Origin: an uncultured delta proteobacterium
Lineage (GTDB): Bacteria > Desulfobacterota > Binatia > UBA9968
Direction: 5' to 3'
Length of the DNA stretch: 64,000 nucleotides
NCBI GenBank assembly: GCA_963804165.1
Contig: CAWDPO010000008.1
Span: forward strand, 32,001-96,000
A program made the translations under genes and the position numbers. Shown one piece after another: positions 8,376 through 64,000 of this stretch. The notes under the pieces are model-generated. The model searched no databases, had not been told where the DNA came from, and saw only the letters and a list, made by a program, of their open reading frames with translations. Positions within the stretch are counted from its first letter, which is position 1. Every line of letters starts with the position of its first letter.

Positions 8376-8529
8376 GTCCTCCTTAGCTGATCTTCGTTTA
8401 AGCCACGCGTCTAGAACTTAGTCGGCGGATTTCTCAATCGCGCATTGGATTCGATACCCGCGCAACCCGTTTGTCAAGATTAAATCTTTGCTGTATGAGC
8501 TTTAAAAGAATTTAAGATAGAATGGCGCT

Positions 8530-28415: not shown

Positions 28416-28471
28416 TGCTGGACCACCGTCGGCGTAAGGAACTGCTGCAAATGCGTTGAATGGATGATTCG

Positions 28472-28488
28472 AGCAATACTTAAGCCAG
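28472..28488 (-). promoter_or_regulatory. Putative sigma54 promoter of the NRPS, with an IHF-like site at ~28504-28516
   Basis: Minus strand CTGGCTTAAGTATTGCT (GG-N10-GC, TTGCT); TTTCAA-N4-TTA just upstream. Confidence 0.65.
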
Positions 28489-28671
28489 AATCCCGGCTAA
28501 CTATAAATAGTTGAAAAATAATATAATTATGGCTCTAGCTGTCGGTGTTCGGAAGGCGCCCGCGCAGTCCTGAGACAAAAGTGACAAGAATTACTGACAT
28601 GATGAAGAACGCGTGGCAAAATCATTTCTCACCTAATTTTTGTCATTCCTCACTTGCGCGACGCCGCGCAC

Positions 28672-29665: not shown

Positions 29666-29798
29666 GCGGGCAAAGACAGAAACAATTTTTAGCTCCCTAG
29701 GGATCGATTCTTCCTTGGATCGAATCGACCATCGAGAGCTTTGGACTGGCGCAGATCATCCTTGCTGTTTGACAGTTCGCGGAATGGAGAATTAGCGC

Positions 29799-35892: not shown

Positions 35893-35906
35893 AGTTTCAC
35901 CAAGAA

Positions 35907-36659
35907 CTAGCGAAAGAGATCCTCGGCCCTCGGCCGAAGAAGCTCCTGCGCCGATCCATGCTCCTTTTTTTCCGCCTCAAAGCCGCGCACGAGTACTACG
36001 GGTACGTCGTCGCGCTTGCCCATCACTAATTCCGCCGCGGCGGCAATTTCATCCGCCACGGCGGCCACTGCTGCCTTGAGTTGGTAGCCATGGCGATCAT
36101 GCGTCCCTCGTTCATCTTTGATTGCCTTCATCCCGGCGATGCCGATCGCTACATCGACGGTGCCCAAGCGCCACGGGCGACCAAAGCTATCACTGATAAT
36201 AATAGCCGGGCTCTTGCCAGAGCGTTCGTGAATTTCGCCGAGCACTTCGCGCGCCGAGCGATCCGGATCCTCCGGCAACAGGGTAACTTGCTTCAAGCCG
36301 ATGTTCGATTGATCGACGCCCGCGTTGGCGCAAATAAACCCGTGCTGGGTTTCAACGATCAATGCTCGGCCGCCGGTGCGAATCACGCCGCGGCTCTCGC
36401 CGAGAATCACCTCGACCAGTTCCGCTTCTTTGTCGAGTTCGCGCGCCAATTCTTTAGCGCGCTCCGAGGGTTGAACGTCTTTTAAGTCAATTATGCGCCC
36501 TTCAGCCTTGGAGACGATTTTCTGCGCAATGACAAGCACATCGTTGTCGTTGATCTCAATGCCCTGACGTGAACAAGCATCAACAATTAAATAACCTAAA
36601 GAATCGCCGGGGCGAATCTCCCCGATGTTTTCAAGGCCAAGCAACTCGAGCCTCTTCAT
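35907..36659 (-). CDS. cofE: Coenzyme F420-0:L-glutamate ligase (stand-alone, no nitroreductase domain)
   Basis: QKIVSKAEGR, CANAGVDQSN, SDSFGRPWRLG and DLFR motifs. Confidence 0.93.
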   Translation of the reverse strand: MKRLELLGLENIGEIRPGDSLGYLIVDACSRQGIEINDNDVLVIAQKIVSKAEGRIIDLKDVQPSERAKELARELDKEAELVEVILGESRGVIRTGGRALIVETQHGFICANAGVDQSNIGLKQVTLLPEDPDRSAREVLGEIHERSGKSPAIIISDSFGRPWRLGTVDVAIGIAGMKAIKDERGTHDRHGYQLKAAVAAVADEIAAAAELVMGKRDDVPVVLVRGFEAEKKEHGSAQELLRPRAEDLFR

Positions 36660-37345
36660 ACGTCACCCGAGCGTGAGGATTCACTTGCGTGCTGTTCGGC
36701 CAAAAGTTTCAACGCTACTTGCGTCGCCTCGCCGTCTTTAAGCCCGTAGGAAAGAAAACGTTCGAGATCTGTTGGTTCGTCGATGTCTAGAGCGATGTGC
36801 TCGTTCTCGACATAGCGAGCCGGCAAACCTCGCGCGACCACCTGGCTTAAGTGAAAGGTAAAGCTGTCGTAGCCGAAGCGGAGCTTGATGACATCGGGCG
36901 GCGCCAACAGCAGCGCATTGGTCCCGAGCCGGTCATGCGACGGCACCAACAAAGCAAATGGTGCTGCCGCATCATCCGGCACTTGCGCTATGACGTACTC
37001 GATATCGGTCGCGCGCACCAGCGGCATGTCGCCGGGAATAATCAATACGGACTCGCGGCCGAGGCTCTTCAATTCCGTCCTGGCGAAGTCGACCGCCGTG
37101 GTTTCACCATTCTCCGCTTTCTCGCGAATCACCTCCGCGCCGGCAGCCGAGGCAATAGTCGCAACTCTGTCGTCGCCGGTGACGACAAACGTCCCGGCAA
37201 GTCCGCGCGCTAGTCTCGCTTGACGCAAAACATCGCGAAACATCACTTCAGCCAAAAGTTCGCGCGCGGCGCAACTCAAGACAGGGCTGAGCCGTTGCTT
37301 GGCGTTACGAAAACCCTTCACAGGCATCAGTGCGACGACGTTCAT
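36656..37345 (-). CDS. cofC: 2-phospho-L-lactate/PEP guanylyltransferase
   Basis: PVKGFRNAKQRL, PGDMPL, GTNALL and LDIDEPTDL motifs. Confidence 0.92.
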   Translation of the reverse strand: MNVVALMPVKGFRNAKQRLSPVLSCAARELLAEVMFRDVLRQARLARGLAGTFVVTGDDRVATIASAAGAEVIREKAENGETTAVDFARTELKSLGRESVLIIPGDMPLVRATDIEYVIAQVPDDAAAPFALLVPSHDRLGTNALLLAPPDVIKLRFGYDSFTFHLSQVVARGLPARYVENEHIALDIDEPTDLERFLSYGLKDGEATQVALKLLAEQHASESSRSGDV

Positions 37346-37371
37346 GCGCGGTCCAAAAGAGTTTGTTTAGA

Positions 37372-38298
37372 CTATTTTTTAACTAACGCCAAGACCTCGC
37401 GGGCGAGGCGTCTCTTATCGGCGAGAGTCGTCATGCGGATGTTCGTACAGACAGTTTTAATATTCGCCGCCGCAATGAGCTCAGCCAGGTTCCTATCTTC
37501 TTCCGCGATCAGAAATGCGTCGAGGAAATCGCTGTACCACTGCGCCACGCCGAGCGCGGACGCTTCCCGGCCGCTGGCTTTCATTAATTTATGCGCCGGA
37601 CCCGAGAACGCCGTTGTGCCGATCAATGGGCTGACGCCAACGACCGCTGCGGCGGTTTCCGTCAATGCCGAGCGAATTCCCGGCACGGCAAGAATTGGCC
37701 CGATGCTCGTGATCGGATTGCTCGGACAGATGATGATTGCTTCGGCGCGGAGAATCACCTCAAGCACACCTGGTGTAGGATGGCTGCTCTCGACGCCATT
37801 AAATCGAATTTCTGTCACCTCACGCGACCATCGCTCTTTGACAAAAAATTCCTGAAAGGAAATTTCTCCATGCGGCGTGTCGACGCGGGTTTCAACCCGC
37901 TCGTCGGACATCGGCAAAATGATCGATTTGATCCCAAGGGCTCTGCGTATTCTGTCGGTTGCCTGCGACAGCGTCAAACCTTCATGCATGTATCGCGTGC
38001 GCGTGATATGCGTCGCCAGATCTCGATCGCCAAGCTTGAACCACGTATCGGCGCCCAAGCGGTGTAGCTGATCTAACGTGTTGAACGTGTCATCTTTGAT
38101 GCCCCAGCCTTTGGCCGTATCAATCAAACCCGTCAACGTATACGTGATGGTATCGACATCAGGCGAGACGTAGAGGCCATGGAAGATCGCGTCGTCGCCC
38201 GTGTTCCCGATGATTGTCAGGTCGGCAGGATCGATTTCGGCAGCGAGCCCCTCGATTAGTTTAGCGCCGCCGGTGCCGCCGGTGAGAGCGGCGATCAT
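37372..38298 (-). CDS. cofD: 2-phospho-L-lactate transferase
   Basis: GGTGGAK, NTGDD, SPDVDT, WFKLGDRD and PSNPITSI motifs. Confidence 0.93.
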   Translation of the reverse strand: MIAALTGGTGGAKLIEGLAAEIDPADLTIIGNTGDDAIFHGLYVSPDVDTITYTLTGLIDTAKGWGIKDDTFNTLDQLHRLGADTWFKLGDRDLATHITRTRYMHEGLTLSQATDRIRRALGIKSIILPMSDERVETRVDTPHGEISFQEFFVKERWSREVTEIRFNGVESSHPTPGVLEVILRAEAIIICPSNPITSIGPILAVPGIRSALTETAAAVVGVSPLIGTTAFSGPAHKLMKASGREASALGVAQWYSDFLDAFLIAEEDRNLAELIAAANIKTVCTNIRMTTLADKRRLAREVLALVKK

Positions 38299-39515
38299 CC
38301 AGAGGGCCCTGGGGTCGATGGAGTCTTGGAGTGATGGGAGAATGTCGTCAGCGGCCCGTTGTTTCTCGCCAAGCCGTCCGGACCGGAGAGCTGCTCAACA
38401 TATGGAATCAGCGATGGCGCGAGAAATTTCTCAGCACGCCGAATAAATTCCGGATAGATCGGCAGACGCGCCTTGAGCTCGAAGCCGGCTTGCGCGCTCT
38501 TTTCCTGCAACAATCGTAGCGCCGGCCAAGGCGCTTCGGGATTGATGAAATCGGGAGTCAGCGGTGACACGCCGCCCCAGTCGTTGATGCCCGCGTCCAA
38601 GTAAAGCTCGTAACCGTCCGGCGTTAAATTGGGCGGCGCTTGGATGTTCATTTCTCCGCCGAGTATGAGACGGGCGAGAGCAATGGTTTTCATCATATCG
38701 TCGCGGCTGGCATCGGGATGAGCGTGCATTGGGATCGTCGACTTGGCGCGGAAATTTTGCACGATGACTTCTTGAATGTGGGCGTAGTGACCGTGCAAAT
38801 CGCGAATCGCCAGTAGCGAATCGATCCGCTCCTGCCAATTTTCGCCGATGCCGATGAGGATTCCCGTCGTGAATGGGATAGCGAGCTTGCCCGCTTCTTC
38901 GAGCGTTTTCAGCCGCACGGCGGGCGTTTTATCCGGCGCATTATCGTGCGCGGCGCCTGGCCGCAGCAATCGCTCGCTGACGCTTTCGAGCATAAGCCCC
39001 ATGCTCACGTTTACTTGTTTAAGCTTTTGCAGATCGCCTTTGCCCATCACGCCTGGATTAGAATGCGGTAGGAGCTCGGTTTCCTCCAAGACGATTCGAC
39101 AAGCATCGCGCAGATAATCGAGCGTGCGCTGATGACCGCGCTCGGCTAAGAATTGCTTCATCTCCGGATAGATCGCTTCCGGCTTATCGCCGAGACTGAA
39201 CAGTACTTCGGTGCAGCCGAGAAGCTTGCCCTGGCGCACCACTCGAAGCACGTCGTCCAACGTCATCGTCTTCGCGCCAGGCTCATCCGGCGCTTTGCGA
39301 AACGTGCAGTAGCCGCAGAAGTCGCGGCACAGATTGGTCAGAGGTACGAAGACTTTTGGCGAGAACGTGACGACTCGCCCTTTGTGATGATCTCGCACAC
39401 GTGCCGCCGTGGTGATCAAAGCTTGCAGCTCGTCGCCACTCAAAGCGGCGAGCCGGTGCGCTTCCGTGCGATTCGGCAATTTGCCTTGCAGGCAGTCTTT
39501 CAAGATTTGCAGCAT
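38295..39515 (-). CDS. cofG: FO synthase subunit CofG (radical SAM)
   Basis: TFSPKVFVPLTNLCRDFCGYC, PHSNPG, QAPPNL and GINDWGGVSP motifs. Confidence 0.93.
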   Translation of the reverse strand: MLQILKDCLQGKLPNRTEAHRLAALSGDELQALITTAARVRDHHKGRVVTFSPKVFVPLTNLCRDFCGYCTFRKAPDEPGAKTMTLDDVLRVVRQGKLLGCTEVLFSLGDKPEAIYPEMKQFLAERGHQRTLDYLRDACRIVLEETELLPHSNPGVMGKGDLQKLKQVNVSMGLMLESVSERLLRPGAAHDNAPDKTPAVRLKTLEEAGKLAIPFTTGILIGIGENWQERIDSLLAIRDLHGHYAHIQEVIVQNFRAKSTIPMHAHPDASRDDMMKTIALARLILGGEMNIQAPPNLTPDGYELYLDAGINDWGGVSPLTPDFINPEAPWPALRLLQEKSAQAGFELKARLPIYPEFIRRAEKFLAPSLIPYVEQLSGPDGLARNNGPLTTFSHHSKTPSTPGPSG

Positions 39516-39599
39516 CTGCTTGCTTGCATATCGAATCGGTCGGCCAGTTTCAAATCACGACTGCTGCGGATCGCCAAGGGCGCCTCTTAAGATTTCCAG

Positions 39600-40946: not shown

Positions 40947-41050
40947 CTCTTAAGATTTCCAGTTGCCCGAAAGACTTTCGCTATGGTAGGTCTTGAGCGA
41001 CTATCGATAAGATGTCGCCGCTAGCAGACAACGACCCGGAGGATAGTGTG

Positions 41051-42250
41051 ATGGACAATTTGGATAACGTTCTCGTCATCGACGCCGACGGCCATGTTTA
41101 CGAAGGCAACGTCGATTTATCGCCTCGCATGCCTGAAAAGTGGCGCTCCCAGGCGCCGGTGCGATTAAAAGACAACGAAGGCAATTCGCGAATCCTGTTG
41201 GAAGGCCGCTTGTGGTCTGCTTCGCAAGGGCTTGCTCCCGGTGTGTCAGGTCCCATGACGGAAAAAGCGCGCGGCTATCGCGCCGGCATGGTCGATCCTG
41301 TCGCTCGGCTCAAAGACATGGACGAGGAAGGCATCGACGTCGCAATTTTGTTCGGTACCCAGATCGCGCTCACGGTCAACGGTTTAATGCACAAGGAATT
41401 GGCCGCTGTGCTGTGCCGCGCGGTGAACGAGTGGCTGGTTGAATACTGTTCCGCGGATCCCAAGCGTCTGCTCGCGGTCGGCTTGGTTCCCTGCCAAGAT
41501 CCGCCGGCAGCGGTTAAAGAATTGGAGTATCTCAAGAAGGTTGGCGCGATTACGGCGATGCTGCCGACCAACGTTTACGGCTTGAATAACATGGGCGATC
41601 GCATGTTCGACCCGATTTATGAATGCGCTCAGGCGATCGAAATGCCGCTGAGCGTACATCCGCAAACCGGCCACGACGGGGTGCTCGGTGTCTCGGGCGT
41701 CATGGGCGCCGGCAGCGAGCGCTTTCGTAAATACGCCTACGTCCACATGACCGCGTTTCCATTCGAATTGATGATTGCCATGATGCACATGATCGGCGAA
41801 GGCGTGTTCGATCGCTACCCGGGATTGCGCGTCGGCTTCATGGAAGGCGGCGCCGGTTGGTTGCCATTTTGGGCCGAGCGATTCGACGAGCATATCGAAA
41901 AGCTCGCGCCGCAGATGCCCGAGCTGCAACGTCGGCCGAGCGACATCATCCGTGGCGAACAGATCACGTTAACCTGTGAATCAGAAGAAACCGGCCTCGA
42001 CCGCGTATTCGCAGCCAATGGCGAGAACACCGTGATGTATGCTTCGGACTATTGCCACTGGGATTGCCACTTCCCTTATTCGGTCAAAGACGTTGTCGAC
42101 GGCAAAGAGCTTTCCTTCGCCCAGAAGGAAAAGTTGCTGAACAAGACGGCCATCGAATTCTTTAAGCTCAAGAATCTGCCCCAAGCTAACGCGCTTAAGT
42201 TCGCGCGCCGGAGCTGGGAAAACGGCAAGGCGAAAGCAGCCAACGAGTAA
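41051..42250 (+). CDS. Amidohydrolase_2 family protein
   Basis: IDADGHVYE, DMDEEGID and ASDYCHWD motifs; GGAGG RBS. Confidence 0.9.
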   Translation: MDNLDNVLVIDADGHVYEGNVDLSPRMPEKWRSQAPVRLKDNEGNSRILLEGRLWSASQGLAPGVSGPMTEKARGYRAGMVDPVARLKDMDEEGIDVAILFGTQIALTVNGLMHKELAAVLCRAVNEWLVEYCSADPKRLLAVGLVPCQDPPAAVKELEYLKKVGAITAMLPTNVYGLNNMGDRMFDPIYECAQAIEMPLSVHPQTGHDGVLGVSGVMGAGSERFRKYAYVHMTAFPFELMIAMMHMIGEGVFDRYPGLRVGFMEGGAGWLPFWAERFDEHIEKLAPQMPELQRRPSDIIRGEQITLTCESEETGLDRVFAANGENTVMYASDYCHWDCHFPYSVKDVVDGKELSFAQKEKLLNKTAIEFFKLKNLPQANALKFARRSWENGKAKAANE

Positions 42251-43913: not shown

Positions 43914-44994
43914 ATGACGAATAAAAAACAATTATTCTTGTCCCCGTGGTTTTACTGTTCGCTGGCATCGCTTTTGCCCAATCGAAGGAGGAAAAACTGC
44001 GGGTCGCGACTCGGCTGATTCGACCTTTCGTCTATGAACAACAGGGGCAGCTCACCGGCTTCAGCGTCGAGCTCTGGCAGGAAATTGCCAAGCAATTGAA
44101 CGCGCAGTCCGAATTTATCGTCAAGCCGACGGTCAAAGAATTGCTCGATGCAGTCAAGTCGAAGAACGTGGCTCTCGGCATCGCGGCGATTTCGATCACA
44201 GCCGATCGGGAAGTGGAGTTGGACTTTTCCCAGCCGATGTTCGATGCCGGGTTGCAAATCCTGACTCCCGTTCAAGGGAGCCGTGGCGCCTTTGTCGAAG
44301 CGATCATGGCTAATTTATTGTCAACCACCGTCCTGCTCTATGTTTTGGGAGTAGCCCTTATTCTTCTCATGATGGCGCATTTGGTGTGGTTTTTTGAGCA
44401 GCGCAATTCCACCGGCATGCTGACTCATCGAGAGTATTTCCCGGGCATCTGCGAGGTGTGCTGGTGGGCCGCTTCGACGTGGCTACCCAGGCCGATCAAA
44501 TGCCGCGCGCGGCGATGGCGCGGATCGTCGCCGTCATCTGGATGTTCATGAGCGTCATCTTCATCGCGTACTTTACTGCGGCGGTCACTTCTTCTCTGAC
44601 TGTGCAACAATTGCGCGCTAATATTAACGGCCCCGAGGATCTTCCCGGCAAACGCGTCGCCAGCATAAAGGGCAGCACATCCGTGGAGTATTTGCGGCAG
44701 CATAGCTTTGAGCCAGTAGAACTTACCAGGATGGAAGAAGCGTATCAGGCGATTCAGGACGGCCACGTCGACGCCATAGTCTACGACGCGTCGGTGTTGC
44801 TCTTTTACGCGGCGCACGAGGGCAAGGGCAAAGTTCAAACGGTTGGGGCGATCTTTCGTAATGAAAATTACGGCATCGTTTTTCCGTCCAACAGCCCGTA
44901 CCGAAAACCGGTCAACGAAGCGTTACTGAAGCTCAAAGAAAACGGCGTTTACGATCAGCTGTATACGAAATGGTTCCGCAGCAACGGCTCATAA
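43914..44994 (+). CDS. Amino-acid-binding protein / ion-channel fusion (GluR0-like), frameshifted
   Basis: S1 (GFSVELW, SITADRE, DFSQP), TM, VWFFE, pore WWAAST, TM FTAAVTSSLT, S2 (INGPEDL, YGIVFP). Confidence 0.8.
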
Positions 44995-45000
44995 TTTTCG

Positions 45001-45058
45001 GTTCCAGGGTTCTAGTTCCTAATTCACCGGAAACTAGAGACTTGAAACTAGAAACTCT
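45001..45058. repeat. Intergenic heptamer repeat hairpin
   Basis: gttctagtt... facing aaactag-agacttg-aaactag-aaactct. Confidence 0.45.
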
Positions 45059-45114
45059 TGACAAAATCGCCTTGTCTTGATGACCTGAGTATCGACCTGA
45101 AGGAGGACATAGCC

Positions 45115-46209
45115 ATGTCGTTTAACGGCCATACGATTGTCGACGCCGACGGTCACGTGATCGAAGACTGTCAAGCAATCATCGACTACATGCCCCAGCC
45201 CTATCGCGATAAGTACGAGACCCATAGTTTTTTTAATCCGTTTCCGCCGCTCGATCACCTGCACTCGTCGAACTTGCATGATTTCCAGCCCGGGGCGTTT
45301 AATAAAGTGGGGCCCGATGGCTGGGTCGATTTTTTAGAAGACGTTGGCATCGAGATGACCGTTCTCTACACGACTCTCGGCCTCGCCTTCGGCAAGATCG
45401 TCAGCCGCGATTGGGCGATCGACGTGGCGCGTGCCTACAACGATTGGCTTTACAACACCTATATGAAGCGCAGCTCGCGATTTAAGGCAATGGGGTTGAT
45501 CGCGCTGCAAGAACCCACAGCCGCGGTGGAAGAACTTAGAAGGATCGTCAAAGAACTCGGCATGTGCGGGGCGATGCTGCCGTCGACCGGCATCCAAGCC
45601 AATCTCGGCGATCAGCGCTATTGGCCGATTTATGAGGAGGCGAACCGGCTTGGCTGCGCCATAGCGGTGCACGGCGGCGCTCATGAAAATCTCGGATTGG
45701 ACGATCTCACTCCTTACGCGCCGGTTCATTCTCTGGGACATCCTTTCGGCCAGATGATCTCGTTCGGCGGCATGATATTTAACGGAATTTTTGAAAAATT
45801 TCCCAACGTCAAATTTGGCTTTATGGAAGGCGGCGTCGCGTGGTTTCTCGTCTGCCTGGAACGCTTCGATCGTTCATGGGAAACCCATATTCAGCATGAT
45901 CCGCGCAAGCGTTTTCTCGAGCTCCGACCCAAGGAAAAAGTCAGCGAATATATCGCCCGCCACATCGACGCCGGGCGGATCTTCGTCGGGTGCGAAGGCG
46001 AAGAACCGGACATCGCGCACGCGATTAAGAGAATCGGCAACAAACCCTGGGTCTACTCGAGCGACTACCCGCACGAAGTCAATAACGAGTTTTGCAAGCA
46101 CGAGATCAACGAATTTCTCGAAAACCAAGAGATCAGCAGCGCCGACAAGGCGGCGTTTCTACACGGCAACGCGCGGCGGTTTTACAATCTCGGAGCGGCG
46201 GGACTATGA
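45115..46209 (+). CDS. Amidohydrolase_2 family protein
   Basis: VDADGHVIE, AYNDWL and SSDYPHE motifs; AAGGAGG RBS. Confidence 0.9.
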   Translation: MSFNGHTIVDADGHVIEDCQAIIDYMPQPYRDKYETHSFFNPFPPLDHLHSSNLHDFQPGAFNKVGPDGWVDFLEDVGIEMTVLYTTLGLAFGKIVSRDWAIDVARAYNDWLYNTYMKRSSRFKAMGLIALQEPTAAVEELRRIVKELGMCGAMLPSTGIQANLGDQRYWPIYEEANRLGCAIAVHGGAHENLGLDDLTPYAPVHSLGHPFGQMISFGGMIFNGIFEKFPNVKFGFMEGGVAWFLVCLERFDRSWETHIQHDPRKRFLELRPKEKVSEYIARHIDAGRIFVGCEGEEPDIAHAIKRIGNKPWVYSSDYPHEVNNEFCKHEINEFLENQEISSADKAAFLHGNARRFYNLGAAGL

Positions 46210-50809: not shown

Positions 50810-51223
50810 TCAATAGCAGCGGATCTCGATCTCGTTGCCGTCCGGATCGAGAAAGTACACTGACGTCGCCCGTCCCCGCGCGCCCCAGCGCGAGACCGGC
50901 CCTTGGCGAATGGCGATTTGGTTGTCCTTTAGGCCCTCGATCACTCCGGCGAAGTTTTCCGCGTCGACAACTAAACAAAAATGATTTAAATTGCCGTTGA
51001 ATTTCTCGTCGGCGCGCGGATGCGAACTTTCTTTGCTTGGAAACAAATCGATGATCGTCGCATCGTTGATACGCACCGACGGAAACCCGACCTTGCCGGC
51101 TGTAAACTCCTCGACGCGTTCGCCGGCTAAACCCAAAACGTCGGTGTAGAATTTTAGCGAGCGGTGAATATCGCCGACGTTGAGGACGATATGGTCCAGC
51201 TCCGTAATTTTGATCCGCGCCAT
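50810..51223 (-). CDS. VOC/glyoxalase family protein
   Basis: LDHIVLNV, NHFCL and YFLDPDGNEIE motifs. Confidence 0.88.
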   Translation of the reverse strand: MARIKITELDHIVLNVGDIHRSLKFYTDVLGLAGERVEEFTAGKVGFPSVRINDATIIDLFPSKESSHPRADEKFNGNLNHFCLVVDAENFAGVIEGLKDNQIAIRQGPVSRWGARGRATSVYFLDPDGNEIEIRCY

Positions 51224-51247
51224 AACCGAACTCCTTTCCCGCGACAA

Positions 51248-52321
51248 TCAGCCGCGCTCGGCGCGCGACGACTCGATGACCGCTATTTCTTGCAACAACG
51301 CTTGAACCTCAGTCGCCGTCCCCACCGTGATGCGCAAGCAGTCTTGTAAACCGGCGACGTCAAAGTAGCGCACTAAAATCTTTCTTCGCTTGAGCTCTTC
51401 GTAGACACCCTTTTGATTCCGCCCGCTTTTTCGCGCCAGTACAAAGTTCGCATGGGACGGATACACGTCGTAGCCCGCGCGTTTGAGCCGGGTCGTCAAC
51501 TTTTTGCGGGTGCGCTGAATACGCCGCGCGTTGCGCGCCATCCACGGCAGATCCTGTAGCGCCGCCGTCGCCGCGATCAGACTCAGCCGGTTCACATTAT
51601 ACGAATCTTTGACCTTCATCATCCCAGATATAATCTGCTCGGATGCGAAAGCGAGCCCGATGCGCATTCCCGCGAGTGAGAATGACTTCGAAAATGTCCG
51701 TAGGACCACCAGATTGGGCAGTCGTTGGATCAACGGAATCGACGATGAGCCTTCGCTCGCGGCAAAATCGACGTAGGCTTCGTCGACAACCAAGATACCC
51801 GGCAGCGACCGCGCGAGTTTTTCGATTTCCGGCAAGGGTACGAGCGTTCCGGAAGGGGCGTTAGGATTGCACAGAAAAGTGAGCGCGGCGCCCTGCTCAG
51901 CCAGCGCGGGGGGCAAGGAATAGTCCGCAGGAAAGTCCACCGGCGCAGGGACTCCGTCTTGAATAGCCACCAAGGTATCATAGAGCGAATAAGTCGGAAC
52001 CGGAAACGCGACACGGTCGTGCGGACCGACAAAGCAGCGCAGCAGCATCGACAAGAGCTCATCCGAGCCGTTACCTACAATGATGTTGGCCGCTTTCACT
52101 CCATAAATGCTTCCCGCTCTGGTCCGCAGCGTGTCACTTCGCGATTCCGGGTAAAGGCGCAGCGACGCATCAATCGCTTTCCTCAGCGCCGCGCGAACTT
52201 TCGGCGACGGCGGGTAAGGATTCTCATTCGTGTTGAGTTTTATGATACCGCTATCTTGCGGCTGCTCGCCCGGGACGTAACCGCCCAATGCGATAATATT
52301 AGGTCGGAAATAGTGTCGCAT
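51248..52321 (-). CDS. hisC: Histidinol-phosphate aminotransferase
   Basis: KLNTNENPY, GNGSDE, DEAYVDF and TFSKSFSLAGMRIG motifs. Confidence 0.93.
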   Translation of the reverse strand: MRHYFRPNIIALGGYVPGEQPQDSGIIKLNTNENPYPPSPKVRAALRKAIDASLRLYPESRSDTLRTRAGSIYGVKAANIIVGNGSDELLSMLLRCFVGPHDRVAFPVPTYSLYDTLVAIQDGVPAPVDFPADYSLPPALAEQGAALTFLCNPNAPSGTLVPLPEIEKLARSLPGILVVDEAYVDFAASEGSSSIPLIQRLPNLVVLRTFSKSFSLAGMRIGLAFASEQIISGMMKVKDSYNVNRLSLIAATAALQDLPWMARNARRIQRTRKKLTTRLKRAGYDVYPSHANFVLARKSGRNQKGVYEELKRRKILVRYFDVAGLQDCLRITVGTATEVQALLQEIAVIESSRAERG

Positions 52322-52556
52322 GCGGCGAAATTCTATCGGCAGCGCCCGTCCTTTTCAAACCGTCATTTGACTAGCCTCTGTCGCGCTCGCATCGGATAAC
52401 GGGGCGAATTGCTAATTCGAATCTTGCCAAGTGACTCGCTCGAACACCCATGGTGCTCTAGCACACATCGCGACATTTTTGTCCAAGGATTCCCGACGTT
52501 GGCCAAAATTCCCCGTTTTGCCAAACCTATTACCAAAAACGTTGTTCTTCTTTCTA

Positions 52557-52610
52557 CTAAGTAGTTGAAATTGCGAAATTCCTAATTTCAGGCCTGGCAT
52601 GTTTTTGGCT
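52557..52610 (+). promoter_or_regulatory. Putative sigma54 promoter with an upstream IHF-like site
   Basis: CTGGCATGTTTTTGGCT at 52594-52610 (GG-N10-GC); TAAGTAGTTGAAA (reverse complement TTTCAA-N4-TTA) at 52558-52570. Confidence 0.55.
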
Positions 52611-52687
52611 ACAGCGACAGCGTTGGTAAAACATTTCCTAAGACTTGGCAAGCAAAGCGGAAAAATTGTAAACAAAATACGATTCCT

Positions 52688-55600
52688 ATGGATGCGCCCA
52701 AAATTCCCATAAACGACCCGTCTATCCTCTTACTCAATGAAATCGAGATCCTGCTCGCGCAATCGCGCCTGCTCGAGCTCTACCTAAAACAAACGCAAGC
52801 GTCGGCTGCCTACGAGACGGCTCGCGCCTATCATCGCCATCAGAGTGAGCTGGCCGAGCTCCGTGCTGCCCTTTCCGAGAAAGAGAAAATTGTCGTAGCG
52901 AAGGAAAACACGGTCGGCGCAAGAGAACGGGATCTTCAAGAAAGAGTCCAGAATCTGGAAACCGACTTGAGCGAAGCTCAACGTCGGCTCCAATACCGCG
53001 ACGTCGAATTCCAACGCGTCGAGTCTGAAGCGGCAGACCTGCGCGGGCTCATCGACCAACTGGAACTCTCGAAGGCACAAGCGCAAACCACCGCGCGAGA
53101 ATCCGCGATGGCTCGCCAAGAACTCACGGCAGAACTGGCGGTCCTGCGTGAGCGTCTCGAAGAAATCCAGGCAAACTTCCAAAATCAACAGCTGGCGTCT
53201 CGGCAACTTCAAGAGGATCTACAAACCCAGATCGCGCAACTCCAGGATCAACTTCGTGAAAAAGTGACTTGGTCGCGCACCGCCGACGGCGAGCTACAAC
53301 AAGCCAAGCGGGAGATCGCCGAACTGCACGAGCGGGTCGCGGAACTTCAAACGAGCCGCCAAGAAGCCCAATCGAGCGCGGCGCGCGAGCTGGCAGACTC
53401 GCGCGCACACTTTGAAATGCAGCTCAACGGCCTCCAGACCGCGCTTGCTGAGCGCGAGCATGTCCTCGAAGAAACCCACCATGCGATGATCGAACTCGAG
53501 CACGGCCTCAGAACCGAGATCGTCATGCTGCATAGCCAACTCGAGCAGAAGCAAGAACTGATCGGTTTTCGGGACGAGGAACTGCGCGGCAATCAATCGC
53601 AATTCGCTGCGCTCCAGCAACGGGTCGCAGAGCTCGAAGCGGCCGAACAAGCAGCGCGGGTCAGTGCCGAGCAAATCGAAGACACACGCCGCTCCTATGA
53701 GGACCGGGTCGTTGCCCTGCAGCATGAAGTCACAGCCCGAGAGCGAGCGCTGACGGAACGTCAGGAAGCCGTGAGCGCGGTGGAGCTGGCGTTGCACGGC
53801 AAAATCCAGTCTCTCCAGCAGGAGCTGGCCCTCAGCCACAGCTTGAACGAAGAGCGCGAAAACGCGCTGCGAAGTTCCCGCACCGAGAATGAAGCCTTGC
53901 GCGAACGGATCGCCGAACAAGAATCTGCCGCTTCCGCGGATCTGCTGGCGCGCCAGCGCGTTGAAGAGCACATGTCGCGGTTTGGAAACCGAAATATCCG
54001 GCTTGCACGCAACATTGGCGCAGAAGGAATACGCGCTTGACCACCAGGGAAAAGCCATCACCTCCCTCGAACAGCGGTTGACCACGGACATTGAACAGCT
54101 TCATCGCCAACTCGAACAGCAGCAAAATTTGTCGGACGCCGGCGCCGCAGAGGTCACGCGCTTGCGCTCGGAGATCGCTGCGGTCGAGGAACAAAAGACC
54201 CGGCTGGCGGATTCCCGCGACGAGCTCGAACGGAGCCGACAGCAAGAGGCGGTGACACGTCAGGAACTAGAAGCGCGCCTCCAGGTCAAGGATGACGAGC
54301 TGCGGGCAGTTCAGGCAAACGCCCAAGAACTTATGCAAGCCGCGCTGAGGGACCAAGAAGCTCACTTTAAATCACTCGCACAGCAAACGAGCGGCGATAT
54401 CGTCGGACTGCAAAATCAGTTGCAAGAGCAAGGGCTCGCGGCGCAACAACACCAAACTGAGCTCGTGCAATTACATGCCGAGATCGCCGGCTTGCGGCAA
54501 CAGATTGCGCAAACCGAACATTCCCGCGATACCCTCGAACAGGCCTTGCAACAGGCCGCCGCCCAGCGCGAGGAGTTAGCCGGGCGCTTACAAACTAGAG
54601 AGAATGAATTTAGCGCTACCCAGGTGCACGCGAGTGAACACTTGGCGGCTCTTGAGGAGCAGCAAACCCGCTTTAATTCCATCGAAGAAGAGCGATGCAA
54701 AGAAATCAGCGAGCTGCGTGGCCAATTGGACCAGCAAAGGCTTCACGCCGATTCACTGCACGAAGAACTTGCCCAACTGCGCTCGGAGAACGCTGGGATC
54801 CAGGAACAAAGGGTTCAAGCCGAGCAATTCCGCCAAGAGCTCGAACAAAACCGGCAGGAAACCTCAGCGCTGCGCGCGGAACTCGAAACGCGGCTACTGG
54901 CAAAAGACGCCGAACTTCAGGCGGCCCAATCCGACGCAACTGCACTAAAGAACCATTTCGATACCAAGCTCAACGAACTGCAGCTCCACCTCGCTGAAAA
55001 ACAGCTGCTCGTGGAGGGCAGAGCTGCGGAGTCCGAGAACCTCAAAGGCCAGCTGGATCGCTTATCGGAACAATTGACGCAGCGAGATTCCGCAAGCGCC
55101 GAATTCCAAGCGCAGTTTCAAAAAGAAACCGAATTGGCGCGCGCCGAGCATCAGACGGCAATCGCCGTGTTGCGCAATGAATTTCAGATCAAACAGAGCA
55201 ACCAGGACAATGAGCTCGCTCAGGAAAGGCAGCGAGTCGCCGAACTTACTCTTCAGATTGGTGAATTCGAGCAGCAGAAGGCCGCTACTGAAACGCAGCT
55301 CCAAGAGCGCCAGCGAGAGCACGAAGCCGCCGTGGTCGAAGCCGCGGCATTGCGATCGCGCTTGGATGAGCTGGAAACACGTCACCAGATGGAACTCTCC
55401 GCCGCAGAGCGGGAGCAAAATCAAGCTCGAAACCAGCTCGAAACAGAACTGTCCGCCGCGCGCGCCGAACTGCAACAGAACGCGAGGGTGGCGACTCAAC
55501 ATCAAGCGGCAATTGCCGAATTGCGGAATGAATATCAGATCAAACAGAGCAACCAGGACAATGAGCTCGCCCAGGAGAGGCAGCGAGTCGCCGAACTTAC

Positions 55601-56699
55601 TCTTCAGATTAGTGAATTCGAGCAGCAGAAGGCCGCTATTGAAACGCAGCTCCAAGAGCGTCAGCGGGAGCATGAAGCCGCCGTGGTCGAAGCCGCGGCA
55701 TTCCGATCGCGCTTGGATGAGCTGGAAACGCGGCGCGAGACAGAACTCTCCGCCGCAGAGCGGGAGCAAAATCAAGCTCGAAGCCAGCTCGAAACAGAAC
55801 TGTCTGCCGCGCGAGCCGAACTACAACAGAAGGCATGGTCGTCGGCCCAGCATCAGGCGGCCTTGGAAAACCTTGCTCTCGCCCACAAGGACCAAATCCA
55901 AAAACTCGAAGGTAGACTTACCGACCAGCAGAACAGCATCAAAGATCGCAATCTCGAGGTGGAGCGATCTCAGTCGCAAGCGCGATTACTGGAGCAACGT
56001 ATCGAAGGGCTCAGTACAGAGCTGCGACAAGCCGAACTAACCGCGATCAACCGAGCCGTGCAAATCAAGGAAGAATATGGAGTCCGCATCGCGGACTTGG
56101 AAAAGCAAGTCGCGCAAAAGACCATCGAGGTGCAGAAGCGCGGCCTGTCAAGGACGGAAGTGGAGCAAACACTTCGACTCGAGATCGACCGGCTGACTCG
56201 CGAAGGTCAAGAAAGACACCAAATTTTGCAGGACCGTAATGAAGAGCTCGTCCGAGTCAAAGTCGAGATGGATACGTTTCAGGAGCAATGCCGCAATTTA
56301 GAATCGGCGGCAAGCCAGAACGAAGCGTCTCTTGGCACCGAAATGGAGAAAATGCGCACGGAATTTCAAGCGCAGCTCGCGCTATTGCAAGCGGAACTAA
56401 GTCAAAGAGACTGGGCTCTAGAGGAGCAGCGCGCGGCGAAGAGCACCATAGAGCTGCAATTCCGTCAGGATCTCGAAACTTTAAACCAACAGTTGGCGGA
56501 AACCGAAGTGCGCGCCAAAGAAAATCAGGATAAGTTTGTGATGGGTGACGATAAGTTAACCCCCGAGCAACAGGACCGTTATCAAAAATACAGAAACGTA
56601 ATGGACGCTGTCGCTGTTGGAAGCGACGGATCATTTCCGGCGTCGGAAAATCGCCGTTGGCGCGGTCGTTTCGGTTGGAAGAGGCGTTGGAAATCATAG
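52688..56699 (+). CDS. Giant coiled-coil protein (~1,340 aa if the frameshift near 53970 is corrected)
   Basis: ORFs 52688-54040 and 53889-56699 join at ...ARQRVEE/STCRGLETE...; E/Q/L/R/A heptad-like pattern throughout; no Walker motif or TM; ends NRRWRGRFGWKRRWKS. Confidence 0.8.
55149..55850 (+). repeat. Tandem 351-bp (117-aa) duplication inside the coiled-coil gene
   Basis: Units start at 55149 and 55500 (catca(g/a) recurs at 55851); long near-identical stretch cagatcaaacagagcaaccaggacaatgagctcgc... Confidence 0.9.
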
Positions 56700-56812
56700 C
56701 GCACCAACCGGCATCATCGCGCGTGATTCTTTGAACGAACTCAATTTAAGAAACCAAGAGGACGTTGAGTAACCATTTGGCGAAATTATAGCTCAGCGGT
56801 CGAAGGACGGTC

Positions 56813-57539
56813 ATGTTACAAACAGAACGTGTATCCACTGGAATCGTCGGGCTCGACCCGCTGCTTGAGGGAGGTTTTCCCCAGGGCCGGTCGGTCCTCA
56901 TTACCGGGGAGCCCGGACACGGGAAAATCAATTTTCGCCCTGCAATTTCTTGGTGAAGGGCTCAATCGCAATGAGAAGGGTATTTTCGTGACCGCGGACG
57001 AAAGCCCGATGGACATACTCGAGCAAGCAGCTTCAATTGGCTGGGACTTTGAGCGGCATATCGAGACCAAAGATCTGTCGATTTTGAACGCCGGCACGTA
57101 TCTCAGCTCGCTGCCGGGTGCGGGCAAAGAACGTCATATCGACGTGCAAAAAGCGGTCAGCGACCTGGCGAGCTTCGTCAAACAACTCGGGGCCAAGAGA
57201 CTAGTGCTCGACCCCGCGGGGCCGTTTGTCCTATTGCGCGATAGCGCGGCACGCATCCAAGACCAGGTCCGCTTGTTAATAAAGTTGATGCGATCTTCGA
57301 TGCCGACAACCAACGTCCTTACCTCCTATGCCGTTCCGAGGACCGGCGAACGATCCATGCATGGCATGGAGGAGTATCTCGTAGCCGGTGCGATCGTCTT
57401 AGAGATGGTCTGGAAAAACGGCGAGCTCGCTCGCAGCCTGATCGTCGAGAAGATGCGTTGCACGGACGTGAAGCCGACTCAACTCGAATTCGATATCGTA
57501 AAGGGGCAAGGCATCGTGCTTCATCCCCCGCTTCGCTAA
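56813..57539 (+). CDS. Single-domain KaiC/RAD55-like RecA-superfamily ATPase 1 (frameshift at the Walker A G-run)
   Basis: [44 protein letters not shown] and VEKMR motifs. Confidence 0.85.
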
Positions 57540-57556
57540 AATTTAAAGTTTAGGGA

Positions 57557-58349
57557 ATGGATCTCCAGCGCATTTCAACCGGCATCGCGGGCCTCGACGC
57601 TTTGCTTCACGGTGGCTATCTAAGAGGGCGCACCTACCTGGTGACCGGCGACACCGGCACGGGAAAAACCATCGCTTGTTTGCAGTTCCTGCTGAACGGC
57701 CTCTAAGCGCGGGGAAAAGGCGGTCTACGTCACCGTCGACGAACGCCCGGGTGAGATTTTAGACTCGGCGGCGTCATTTTCCTGGGATCTCCAGCCGTAC
57801 ATTCAAGAAAAGAGCTTGGTCATCCTGGATGCCTCGCCCTATTTTGGCGCCCGGAGCGCGAGTGCGACGGAAAAAGGTATCGATCCGCAAAAAGTCGTCG
57901 CCGATCTTGGCAACTATGCAAGAAGGCTCAGCGCAACGCTTCTCATCATTGATCCGATAACGCCGCTCATCCTGCCGAACGACGCAACCAGCCCAAGCCA
58001 GGACCAAGCCCGCTCCCTTGTACAATTGATACAAACTCAACTAAATACGACCAATCTGTTTACCGCCCACCTGCCAAAAGTGACGGCCCAGAGCAGCGCG
58101 AACGGCATCGAGCAATATCTCACCTCCGGCGTGTTGGTTCTCAAAACCGATGAGATCGACGGCAAATTTAAGCGCACCGTGACCATCAAGAAAATGCGCG
58201 GCACACCCGTTGAACCTGGTAACTTTCCTTTTGCGATTCTCGCAAATGACGGAATTGTCCTGACGAGTTGTCGCGCCGGAGAAGTCTCGCGGATGGATGG
58301 CCCGGCGCCGATGTTTGAATTTTTTCACCTTTCCAAAAGACAATCCTGA
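57557..58349 (+). CDS. Single-domain KaiC/RAD55-like ATPase 2 (frameshift near 57703)
   Basis: MDLQRISTGIAGLDALLHGG, TGDTGTGKT, VTVDERP, LIID and IKKMRGT motifs. Confidence 0.85.
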
Positions 58350-58457
58350 CCCCGAAATTCTGAATTTGCGTTCGGCGGTCGACGCTCGACGGGATACCGA
58401 AGGCGCTCGGGCGTCGCCATGAATTATTTCGCTTTTCTCGCTGCGTTTCGGGCTTTC

Positions 58458-58486
58458 TTGACAGCCGGCGAAACGATGCTTAGATT
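58458..58486 (+). promoter_or_regulatory. Putative sigma70 promoter of clpB
   Basis: TTGACA-N17-TAGATT just upstream of the GAGG RBS. Confidence 0.5.
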
Positions 58487-58509
58487 TTTCCACAAATGAG
58501 GACTCCAAA

Positions 58510-61137
<2,628 letters not shown>

Positions 61138-61464
61138 GTCCGTCGTCGAAAAAAGTTCCGCCGGGGTTGGCGCGGGTGCGAAAAGAGATTCCTCGGCCAA
61201 GTCAGATTTTTAAGAAGCAAGAAGACCGATCAGCGCAGGCTGGCAAAAGAAGCAATTCGCCGGGAGCTAACAGAAACTCTCCCGCCAAAATCCTCTTAAC
61301 CGCAATCCACGGTTCTTTTTACCGGCGGGCGCGTGTCGCAATTTCGCGTCCGCCTTGGTTTTAAGCGCTGACAGCGAGCCGATGATTGTTCGTGCCTTTT
61401 TTGCCGTGCCACGGAGCCAAGATTCCCGCGAGTTTTCTCGTTTCGATCTCATGCGGCCAATTTG

Positions 61465-62908
61465 ATGAATCGCGCAGCGGACAGCACCGGTGTGGCGGTC
61501 CAGCAAAGACGGCTCACGTTGATTTTATTCAACGTTTGCGTCGGCCAGTTTATCGTCGGCCTCGACCAGCGCGCCTTGCTGGTCGCGCTGCCGACCCTGA
61601 CCGAAACATTTCAATACCAGCCTGACGACCATCCAATGGGTTTTATTGATCTATGATTGCTTTTGATCGGCACCGTGATCACCGTCGGCCGTTTGGGCGA
61701 TCTTTTCGGCCGGCGGCGGTTTTACGCCGTGGTTTTCTGGTTTTCGTTTTGAGCTCAGCGCTTTGCGGTTTCGCTCAAACCGCGGGACAAATCATTTTGT
61801 TCCGCGGCTTGCAAGCGCTCGGCGGCGCCATGATTTCAGCCAACGGTAGGGCGATCGCTCCGTCGCGTTTCCGTCCAGCGAGCGCGGCAAGGCCATGGGC
61901 TTCGCCTCTATGGCCTTCCATGTCGGGTTCTTGACTGGTCCAACCCTCGGCGGATTTTTGATCGACACGATCGGTTGGCGTTGGATTTTTTTCATCAATC
62001 TGCCGATCGGCATTTGGGGCGCGTTCCTAGCGCTGAAACTCTTGAAGAAAGCAAAGAAGAGGTCAAAGGAATTTCGGTCGATTTTCCCGGCGCGATCCTG
62101 CTCATGCTGACCTGCAGTCTTTTCATCTACGCCATGAATCAGCTGCCGCATGTCGGCTGGCAGGATCCGTTAGTGACCCGAACGATGTGGACTGTCTGTC
62201 GTGGCTCTGGCGCTTTTCGTATTCGCCGAGCTGAGATCGCCCATGCCGATCTTAAGCTTTTCGCTCTTTCGCAATCGGCTTTTCACCGCCTCCATGCTCA
62301 GCTTGTTTTTCATCACCTCGACGCAATCGGCCATCAGTTTTCTGATGCCGTTTTATTTGCAGAACATACTCCATTTTTCCCCGACACATATGGGCTGGAT
62401 CATCATCGCCAATTCTGCGGTCATCGTCATGGTCGCGCCCATAGCCGGATGGCTGTCGGATCGCATGGGTTCGCGTCTGCTGTGCACCGTTGGCTCCGGG
62501 TTGATCGTCGATCGGACAGTTCTTCATCGCATCGTTGGGAATTGATTCGTCGATTCCGCGGATCATTTTGCCGTTATTCTTGATCGGCTTTGGCTGGGCA
62601 TATTCAATTCACCGAACCAGAGCGCAATCATGGGTTCGGTACCTCGCGACAAACTCGGTACGGCATCGGGCATGAACACCGACCACTGCCCGGACCGGCG
62701 GCGCGATGGGCGTCGCCCTTTCCGCGACTTGTTCACCTACGGACTCGCCGCCGCGGCATGACCGCGAGCGCAAATCGAATCGCCGCAAACTTGGGGCACC
62801 GCGCCGGAAGTATTCGTCCATTCATTTAATCACACGGTGCATATCGTTAACATCTTCACGATTCTCTCGGTCCTGTTTTCGGTGGTGCGCGGTCCACGCC
62901 ACGAGTAG
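61465..62908 (+). CDS. DHA2/EmrB-like MFS transporter, multiple frameshifts
   Basis: VGLDQRALLVALPT, GRLGDLFGRRR, FRGLQALGG, GWRWIFFINLPIG and FRNRLF across frames. Confidence 0.8.
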
Positions 62909-62932
62909 CCCAACAATTTGTGAACGAGTTCC

Positions 62933-64000
62933 ATGACGACGGCGGAACAAACCATTTCACGACGGACATCGCGGCTTATCCTGTTAAGCGTCTGCATCGG
63001 CCAGACCATCGTCGGTCTCGATCAGCGCGCCCTCACGGTGGCTCTGCCCACTCTGACGAGCGCGTTCCACACGCCTTCACGACGATCCAATGGACGATCT
63101 TCGTCTATGATCTAGTGCTGATCGGCCTGATCATCACGATGGGACGATTGGGCGATTTGTTCGGGCGACGCCGTTTCTACAGCATGGGGTTTTTGATTTT
63201 CGTGGCCGCGTCCGCCATTTGCGGCCTGTCGCAAAGCGCCGGCCAGCTGATTTTTTTCCGCGCGCTGCAGGCGCTCGGCGGTTCCATGATCGCCGCCAAC
63301 GGCCGTGCGATTGTCTCGGTTAATTTGCCGCCGGAGGACCGCGGGCGCGCTCTCGGCCTGACTTCCACGGCGTTCCACATCGGTTTTCTCACCGGCCCGT
63401 CCTGGGTGGTTTTCTGATCGATACCATCGGCTGGCGCTGGATTTTCTACATCAACATGCCGTTCAGCCTGTGGGCGCTTATCTCGCGTGGAAGGTCGTTC
63501 CCGAGACACGCGATGGCGGAAAATCGGCGATCGATATTCCTGGCGCTCTGCTGCTACTCGTGACCAATGGCCTGTTTATTTACGCCATCGATCAACTGCC
63601 GCGGATCGGCTGGCGCCACCCGATGTTTCTACTGACTCTGGTGCTTTCGGTGATCTCGTTATTTTTCCTGTTGCGCATCGAAGCCAGGGCGAAGACACCG
63701 ATTTTGATTTTGTCGATGTTTCGCTCTCAACTTTTTAGCGCGGGCATTATGAGTCTGTTTCTAATCTCCGGCACCTTATCGGCAATCAATTTTCTCCTGC
63801 CGTTCTTCCTGCAGAACTTGCTTGGCTATTCGCCATCGCAGGTCGGCTGGATCATCGTCGCCGACTCAGCGATCATCATGATCATGGCGCCGATCGCCGG
63901 GGCCTTGTCTGATCGTCTTCGGCTCGCGATTGCTCTGCACAGTCGGCTGCGCCGTCGTCGCCGTCGCGCAATTCTTCCTGGCCACCCTGGACCTGCACTC
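62933..64000 (+). CDS. Second DHA2/EmrB-like MFS paralog, frameshifted, runs off the window
   Basis: VGLDQRALTVALPT, GRLGDLFGRRR, FRALQALGG and GWRWIFYIN motifs. Confidence 0.8.

Follow-up and report, generated by a model that had tools for sequence, protein, structure and literature searches.

We analysed a 64,000-nucleotide stretch of DNA (the window) from the genome of an uncultured soil bacterium, in which a sigma-54-type promoter is followed on the forward strand by three genes, encoding a giant coiled-coil protein that we refer to as the rod and two single-domain KaiC-like ATPases, K1 and K2. The source lineage consists of uncultured soil bacteria with Syntrophobacter as GTDB neighbour and with deposited names that vary, and it is abundant in soil metagenomes. 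Judging from sequence, the three genes would form a conserved operon under the control of sigma-54 and integration host factor (IHF), with a rod, an obligatory K1 and an optional K2, and we give about even credence to the view that the ATPases form a ring and the rod a scaffold on which, or by way of which, that ring works. All three genes are broken in this assembly by one extra base (+1), and none retains an intact open frame. The original prediction had treated the genes as intact, passing over the three frame changes silently, and its coiled-coil protein of ~1,340 amino acids (aa) does not exist here as an open reading frame (ORF), the gene being split over two frames. The locus is thus a caution in itself, with three consecutive genes that look intact by eye and are each broken in the assembly.

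The prediction that the three genes belong together in other genomes was borne out in two sets of relatives. The gene order RecD2, CNNM, aminotransferase / rod, K1, K2, ClpB is a recurring one among 14 relatives from the genus: K1 and ClpB were found in all 14 loci, the rod gene, or its end at a contig edge, lies upstream of K1 in all 14, and K2 is present in 12, being absent from genomes G015 and G005. The latter is an unpublished genome, which accounts for one of the missing K2 genes and for the 508-aa rod described below and contributes one row each to the genus synteny, K1-frame, promoter, rod-length and tree sets. A second set of 80 loci was gathered from metagenomes by means of the conserved N-terminal motif of the rod. 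Of the 34 loci whose rod gene was complete and whose DNA extended 900 nt or more beyond it, 33 had a KaiC-like gene adjoining the rod, and the pair was kept across 46-100% identity of the rod N-terminal segment. The single exception, L189, looks truncated, because its promoter is common to L190 and L192, whose rods are ~1330-1450 aa long. With at least 1900 nt downstream (27 loci), two ATPase genes were found in 18 loci, one in 9 and none in 0, consistent with K2 being optional. Nine metagenome loci that we listed gene by gene had the same neighbour order throughout, and eight of them reach clpB. The ATPase clade as a whole is narrowly distributed: K1 found matches in 24/24 genomes of the family, 4/5 of a second family and 0/11 of a third, and K1-like protein clusters in soil data numbered 617 at E up to 1e-30, the best 120 of which were all at least 78% identical.

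The promoter is likewise shared. The -24/-12 element, TGGCATGTTTTTGGCT, has the GG/GC spacing within TGGCAC-N5-TTGCW that is expected of a sigma-54 promoter and is kept upstream of the rod gene, being identical in 10 of 11 genus loci amid poorly conserved spacer DNA and reading TGGCACGCAAATCGCT in the eleventh. Among the metagenome loci, 79 had at least 200 nt upstream, representing 68 distinct promoter sequences, and TGGCA[CT]N5TNGC occurred in all 79, its median distance to the start codon being 94 nt. An IHF-like site with at most one mismatch was found in 61 of the 79 (perfect in 25), and 54 of those 61 keep a spacing of exactly 37 nt from the site to the -24 motif downstream; a shuffled window segment reached at most one mismatch in 6.75%. 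The IHF and sigma-54-like elements of the original prediction are therefore both present and conserved in relatives. The genome encodes 29 sigma-54 activator domains, none of them near the unit or elsewhere in the window, and the nearest activator gene on contig C45, which carries a paralogous operon described below, lies ~60 kb from that operon. Upstream of the IHF-like site, a TTGTCCA..AAAT block is retained in genus relatives, and a similar element stands at an equal distance before the paralogous operon; the TTGTCCA-type 7-mer was not enriched at sigma-54-like sites genome-wide (7 found vs ~3 expected). We regard this region as a lead only for an activator-binding site. A claim for a wider regulon was dropped, since the long upstream pattern matched only the two operons from which it had been built and the argument was circular.

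Table 1. Positions of the features discussed, in window coordinates except for the last four rows, which are in the coordinates of the loci named
Feature	Position	Strand	Remarks
Possible enhancer region	52479..52530	+	TTGTCCA at 52479 and TTGGCCA at 52499, 116 and 96 nt before the -24 element
IHF-like site TAAGTAGTTGAAA	52558..52570	+	one mismatch to consensus YAANNNNTTGATW
Sigma-54-type -24/-12 element TGGCATGTTTTTGGCT	52595..52610	+	GG and GC ten bases apart; 93 nt before ATG 52688
Rod (coiled-coil) gene	52688..56699	+	frame 2 to ~53968, then frame 0 to stop 56699
Tandem duplication inside rod gene	55149..55831	+	351-bp unit (117 aa), 1.9 copies, 92% matches
K1 (KaiC-like ATPase 1)	56813..57539	+	PF06745 profile positions 1-32 and 25-229 in frame pieces
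K2 (KaiC-like ATPase 2)	57557..58349	+	PF06745 profile positions 1-43 and 44-226 in frame pieces
Class I/II aminotransferase, divergent upstream neighbour	51248..52321	-	Pfam
ClpB, conserved downstream neighbour	58510..61137	+	Pfam
Sister-genera KaiC-like/REC-KaiC-like/REC-PAS-kinase locus	L118 6067-9903		
Sister-genera KaiC-like/REC-KaiC-like/REC-PAS-kinase locus	L123 5284-8682		
Sister-genera KaiC-like/REC-KaiC-like/REC-PAS-kinase locus	L120 4575-6506		
Sister-genera KaiC-like/REC-KaiC-like/REC-PAS-kinase locus	L138 6104-9427		

Both ATPases belong to the KaiC domain family PF06745, and, as had been noted, 17 bases separate the K1 stop (57539) from the K2 ATG (57557). The two frame pieces of K1 score 40 and 154.6 bits and those of K2 58.3 and 125.8 bits (cut-off 26.6), together covering positions 1-229 and 1-226, respectively, of the 231 in the profile. 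In an alignment of 38 K1 sequences G35-T36-G37-K38, D62-E63, D133 and K213-M214-R215 are invariant, and in 24 K2 sequences the Walker A motif GDTGTGKT, VDERP, LLIIDP and KMRG are conserved; both proteins are apparently catalytically competent. The acidic pair DE replaces the EE of KaiC in K1 and K2 alike, as predicted. Other motif claims held in part: the KMR finger is found in both ATPases, but the Walker A motif of K1 in the window is cut by the extra base, and the EY assigned to the position of the Ser/Thr phosphosites of KaiC CII occurs in K1 (MEEYL), whereas K2 has QY (IEQYL). Beyond its ATPase domain K2 carries a C-terminal tail, P-x-F-E-[FY]-F (window 58260-58346), which is conserved in relatives (as F-E-x-F across the 24 K2 sequences), is missing from K1 and represents a candidate docking peptide.

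Comparison with known families places both proteins at the CI half of KaiC. The best matches among solved structures were KaiC CI (~residues 39-243) and the archaeal proteins PH0186 (2zts), SSO2452 (2w0m) and PH0284 (2dr3), with E-values of 6e-27 to 3e-20 to the three archaeal chains. NCBIfam KaiC models gave 91-136 bits against cut-offs of 408 and 546. For NF006799/TIGR02655 the window pieces scored 91.4 and 78.7 bits and intact relatives 133.2 and 136.2 bits (cut-off 408), the alignments to NF006799 spanning profile positions 37-239 and 58-239 of 515, which is the CI half. Circadian KaiC has two tandem domains in ~500 aa; K1 and K2, at ~240-260 aa, align only to ~10-240 of those 515 positions. 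Scores against the ArlH/FlaH model NF052589 were lower still (28.6 and 26.6 bits for window pieces, 57.4 and 43.6 bits for intact relatives; cut-off 215), and none of the NCBIfam archaeal KaiC models reached its cut-off. In a quick maximum-likelihood tree of 40 rows, K1 was monophyletic (support 100), as was K2 (93), and the two fell into one clade (100) with the paralogous ATPase of contig C45 and KaiC-like proteins from sister genera. Two Bathyarchaeota proteins formed the nearest outgroup, in keeping with the prediction that these are single-domain KaiC-family proteins with archaeal kin. Sister-genera proteins in which a receiver (REC) domain is joined to a KaiC-like domain lay on a distant long branch, and we rejected descent of K2 from such a gene on account of that separate placement. 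From its position in the tree, K2 is best seen as a lineage-specific duplicate and not as an equivalent of CII.

A locus at G000:C40:167843-170201 also gives the genome a true KaiC, with two domains in a 605-aa open frame, and the only two KaiB matches of the genome (G000:C40:167843-168445) lie directly downstream of it. A sigma-54 activator gene is found ~5 kb from this KaiC-kaiB-kaiB locus on C40.

The rod is variable in length and constant at its ends. In relatives the rod is encoded by one uninterrupted ORF, of 508-1685 aa, and complete rod ORFs in the metagenome loci span 233-1449 codons, of which 32/47 end in RRW...[KR]RRW. Conservation is concentrated in an N-terminal motif (residues ~10-46, LLLNEIDILLAQTRLMELYLKQAQAT) and a C-terminal block (EFQAQLALLQAELSQKEWALEE), with the last 15 residues reading RRWxxGFGWKRRWKS and with RRW and KRRW invariant in 8 sequences. 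Even the shortest rod (L226, ~240 aa) retains the N-terminal motif and a tail-like end. The 351-bp tandem duplication within the window gene shows how rod length changes, and these sequences indicate that the middle of the rod expands and contracts by repeat duplication while the ends stay fixed.

Several features of the rod suggest a protein that has no head and is helical over almost its whole length. The residues E, Q, A, L, R and K make up a fraction of 0.65-0.67, and proline is almost absent between the two ends. As had been predicted, the rod has no transmembrane segment (maximum Kyte-Doolittle 19-residue mean 1.21) and no SMC head, SMC/Rad50 models matching coiled-coil arms only, at 19-43 bits against cut-offs of 567-1087, and Pfam SMC_N being absent from the matches listed for the two rod pieces. 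The rod reached the cut-off of no Pfam or NCBIfam model, the Pfam Filament model PF00038 scoring 19 bits against a cut-off of 40, and neither of its pieces had a listed match to the PspA_IM30 family with an E-value of 0.01 or below. Profiles of the two rod ends found nothing below E 0.4 among solved structures (PDB), and the first 120 aa gave scores of at most 0.90 to unnamed clusters in the Protein Atlas, with no lead. An AF2 model of a 993-aa orthologue, made with no alignment, was nearly all helix, with runs of up to ~240 residues, at a low pLDDT of 58.6. In being long, heptad-rich and without an enzymatic domain, and in having conserved ends around a variable rod, the protein resembles known scaffolds such as crescentin and FilP/Scy-type proteins; the likeness is one of sequence features only, with no demonstrated sequence relation. 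To our knowledge, none of the crescentin, FilP or Scy-type proteins is paired with a KaiC-type ATPase.

A second module of the same kind is encoded on contig C45 of this genome (L117 9475-12284, minus strand). Here a sigma-54-type element, TGGCACACAATTGGCT, in a promoter near L117 12354, precedes genes for a 630-aa helical protein ending in GRWKARR and a 238-aa KaiC-like ATPase, and the module is divergent from cheY-cheD-cheA-cheW-mcp. This pair is kept beside the che genes in 6/8 relatives, and a query with the C45-type ATPase (E up to 1e-40) found matches in 2/401 phylum-wide genomes, namely this genome itself (G000) and one sister-genus genome. When the two rods of the genome were set against each other by BLASTP, the best E was 3e-4 and the similarity was of the coiled-coil type only, so that homology between them is not demonstrable. 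The occurrence of a second, non-homologous rod with an ATPase of the same clade and a sigma-54-type element argues that the rod/ATPase pairing arose, or was kept, twice. The original prediction had entertained a cytoskeletal or polar filament with a role in development or motility, for which the sole hint is this paralogous pair beside chemotaxis genes; no flagellin domain was found in the genome (81% complete), and T2SSE-type ATPases are present in it.

At the position divergent from the aminotransferase, sister genera carry genes for a 235-240-aa KaiC-like protein, a REC-KaiC-like protein and a REC-PAS-histidine-kinase, and in L138 this operon is followed by ClpB. Since sister genera hold KaiC-like genes with REC and kinase genes, the ATPase clade appears to sit in signalling contexts. 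In Bathyarchaeota loci (L049 424-2408; L050 1587-3520; L079 7989-9956) the ATPase gene is followed by genes for a ~400-aa KaiC-related protein and small proteins, with no rod; the ~400-aa neighbour is weakly similar to the bacterial REC-KaiC-like proteins (E 4e-7, 21% identity), and the layout recalls the bacterial pairs. Taken as a whole, these loci suggest an ATPase clade that moves between signalling contexts and has become coupled to a rod with a basic, tryptophan-containing tail at two loci.

Set beside described systems, K1 and K2 share with KaiC CI the domain family, Walker A, an acidic catalytic pair at the equivalent position, Walker B and an arginine finger, but differ from KaiC in consisting of one ~240-260-aa domain with DE in place of EE, with neither a CII nor Ser/Thr phosphosites, and with no kaiB beside them. 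Their one-domain architecture and size are those of PH0186, PH0284 and SSO2452, from which they differ in being bacterial, driven by sigma-54 and paired with a giant rod. As cited in PMC5847659, Makarova, Galperin and Koonin (2017) proposed archaeal single-domain KaiC-like ATPases as signal-transduction hubs with many partners. ArlH/FlaH is likewise a single-domain protein of the KaiC family and acts on a partner machine; the unit here lacks ArlI/ArlJ neighbours and scores far below the ArlH/FlaH cut-off. KaiC homologues of Pseudomonas are reported in a preprint to be double-domain proteins tied to histidine kinases, response regulators and stress resistance (10.1101/2022.01.26.477890). Such KaiC/kinase/receiver wiring resembles the sister-genera loci, whereas from the unit in the window the kinase and receiver genes have disappeared, and a rod gene and a second ATPase have come in. 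A further counterpart, the C45 pair, is alike in its sigma-54-type promoter, variable rod and small KaiC-type ATPase, and the window unit differs from it in having a non-homologous rod, a second ATPase and no chemotaxis neighbours. As the original prediction had supposed, the arrangement appears undescribed: a full-text literature search turned up archaeal KaiC-like work, the Pseudomonas preprint and unrelated coiled-coil papers but no bacterial rod/KaiC-like pair, although related bacterial families might be listed in the text or supplements of Makarova et al. (2017). The unit is apparently a KaiC-like ATPase module with a lineage-specific partner and a role that has apparently not been described.

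We therefore propose the following working model, all steps of which are conditional. An enhancer-binding protein, with IHF bending the DNA, would switch the operon on. A RecA-type ring would be built from K1, with or without K2 as an optional co-subunit, and would engage one or both conserved ends of the rod. With ATP it would assemble or release the rod, use it as a scaffold for signalling, or set partner binding. The basic Arg/Trp tail may tether the rod to a polyanion, whether the membrane or some other. Complex prediction of K1 with the N-terminal 90 aa and the C-terminal 125 aa of the rod, run with alignments, returned scores of 0.00 and 0.00, and the method gave no answer either way. 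KaiC-family ATPases outside the cyanobacterial clock are common and mostly unexplained. The bacterial clade described here appears to have exchanged receiver and kinase partners for a giant rod at two loci of one genome, under a dedicated sigma-54 promoter, and the rod and K1 form a concrete pair in which the effect of a single-domain KaiC ring on its partner can be studied, with natural rods of ~240 aa at hand. A more far-reaching version would make this a new scaffold system, in which the rod is a coiled-coil 'ruler' of variable length (~240-1685 aa) that has a fixed head motif and a membrane tail of Arg/Trp type, and in which a dedicated hexameric KaiC-type ATPase would assemble it, release it or read it out. 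A single sigma-54 activator would govern both paralogous rod/ATPase modules, and the chemosensory array to which one module is coupled may, no flagellin gene having been found in this genome, direct pili or cell polarity; we consider this version unlikely as a whole.

A number of observations weigh against an ATPase ring acting on a scaffold rod. The contact between rod and ATPase is one that we infer from sequence. In one relative (G021) the rod gene is cut to its last ~290 codons (L027 8929-9876) with unrelated sequence before it, and a scan of ~6.9 kb upstream of K1 found no sigma-54 element. The paralogous ATPase occurs without its rod gene in 2/8 relatives, and loci at the same place in a sister genus (G331) and a sister family (G029, G031, G033) have no rod, which means that the ATPase clade does not need one. 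The synteny is also frozen, so that the loci stem from one lineage and are not independent, and adjacency could be an inherited order. These last points would suit the view that rod and ATPase genes are co-transcribed neighbours with unrelated functions, all linked loci being of one ancestry. We nevertheless hold that view to be decidedly improbable, given that one genome holds two non-homologous rods, each with a partner from this ATPase clade and each behind a promoter of like type, and given a pair that persisted at nearly every metagenome locus while the rod N-terminal segment diverged. Somewhat less improbable, though still well below the scaffold reading, is a stress module tied to ClpB, in which a helical protein induced by sigma-54 would protect or mark membranes or aggregates and the KaiC-like ATPases would sense or remodel it. 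ClpB lies directly downstream in 14/14 genus loci and in the eight listed metagenome loci that reach that far, a sister-genus ClpB also follows the KaiC-like/REC/kinase operon, and the psp operon, which is driven by sigma-54 and IHF, has a similar promoter architecture. The reported link between Pseudomonas KaiC homologues and stress resistance (10.1101/2022.01.26.477890) points the same way. On the other hand, neither rod piece matches the PspA family in the search given above, ClpB has a sigma-70-like promoter match of its own, the sister-family KaiC-like operon is not followed by ClpB, and the adjacency is limited to one lineage with frozen synteny. The original prediction had instead cast K1 and K2 as a split KaiC, with CI and CII equivalents forming a clock-like hetero-oligomer that controls a filament. 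The presence of two closely spaced KaiC-domain genes that both look catalytically competent speaks for such a split, but both products align to the CI half of KaiC models, the CII Ser/Thr pair is in neither, they are sister groups within one single-domain clade of the quick tree, K2 is absent from 9/27 metagenome and 2/14 genus loci, and a full KaiC with two KaiB genes is encoded on C40. We consider a split KaiC very improbable.

The frame breaks call for a separate weighing. In the rod gene a first frame (52688-54040, 450 aa) overlaps a second (~53968-56699), and one extra base lies near 53968, where comparison with the four closest metagenome relatives (~82% identical) opens a one-base gap. 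The extra base in K1, near 56917, falls within the Walker A codons, with frame 2 reading GEPGHGKI... and frame 0 reading ...GSPDTGKS, and in relatives K1 is in a single frame in 14/14 cases, reading GEPGTGK[ST]. In K2 an extra T at 57704 creates a TAA (57704-57706) after 49 residues, the next frame continuing to 58349; K2 is in a single frame in 11/11 relatives, and the closest of these (~94% identical in K1) has GGCCTC-AAGCGC. We think it very probable that all three extra bases are assembly errors, since breaks occur genome-wide, an aminoacyl-tRNA synthetase gene included, and every relative compared reads through. The assembly comprises 7.5 Mb in 46 contigs, and its completeness is 81%. When 155 long ORFs from four relatives were compared with it, 54 of them found an orthologue of at least 60% identity, and these showed 18 frame changes in 20,186 aligned residues (~13 unique after removal of genes matched twice), both +1 and -1, with 3-4 changes clustered in single genes. 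The class I aminoacyl-tRNA synthetase gene (G000:C42:78855-80539) falls into three or more frame pieces, one match alone containing four stops, a search of the genome for a gyrA-type domain found none, and the sister assemblies G018 and G019, which have few contigs, show similar breaks even in ClpB and RecD2. Two observations tell against assembly error: the breaks are unevenly spread, with rpoB, rpoC, ClpB, RecD2 and a 7.4-kb nonribosomal peptide synthetase (NRPS) gene intact, and three public soil runs, which held only 5-8% of the sampled words, gave contigs that do not cover the three break sites, no RNA run with this genome being listed. Real decay of accessory genes would account for the uneven spread, with insertions that are true mutations and the operon a set of pseudogenes in this organism but functional in relatives. 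The three breaks lie within 5.7 kb, the nearby aminotransferase and CNNM genes are also intact, the other broken genes that we identified are accessory (MFS, GluR0-like, PrpD, CoA-transferase, amine oxidase and UvrA-like), and no long homopolymer is found at any of the three sites. Against decay stand the fragmented synthetase gene, the completeness of 81% despite only 46 contigs, the like breaks in G018 and G019 and the clusters of breaks in other single genes of the same assembly, and we accord it a small chance. That all three shifts are in the same direction, +1, might bring programmed frameshifting to mind. We rejected it, its chance being negligible: the three sites have no slippery motif in common, relatives encode all three proteins in one frame at these sites, and the assembly has +1 and -1 changes in many other genes.

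The window neighbours of the unit, as assigned by Pfam, are RecD2, CNNM, the aminotransferase, ClpB, an unknown ORF and an MFS gene, and the aminotransferase is also found in relatives and sister genera. In agreement with the original prediction, no kaiB, archaellum, gas-vesicle or kinase gene was present among the Pfam-scanned neighbours, kaiA not having been searched for. An Rfam search over 51000-62000 gave no match, and no convincing terminator was found after K2. ClpB is preceded by a sigma-70-like match (TTGACA-17-TAGATT at 58458-58486) and probably constitutes a transcription unit separate from that of rod, K1 and K2. Other frame-broken genes of the window are those for a GluR0-like ligand-gated channel with a binding-protein domain (43925-44991) and for the MFS transporter (62851-64000), in line with indel noise of the assembly. 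The NRPS gene (21123-28496, minus strand) encodes an intact protein of 2457 aa with two modules in the order C-A-T-C-A-T-TE. A row of genes for coenzyme F420 biosynthesis (35242-39554, minus strand) includes an F420-dependent oxidoreductase, an F420 ligase, a CofC-like protein, CofD and a radical SAM enzyme. Finally, the window contains four Amidohydro_2 genes (7218-8417, 29796-30917, 40997-42247 and 45052-46206), which stand beside genes for NMT1-type or other solute-binding proteins.

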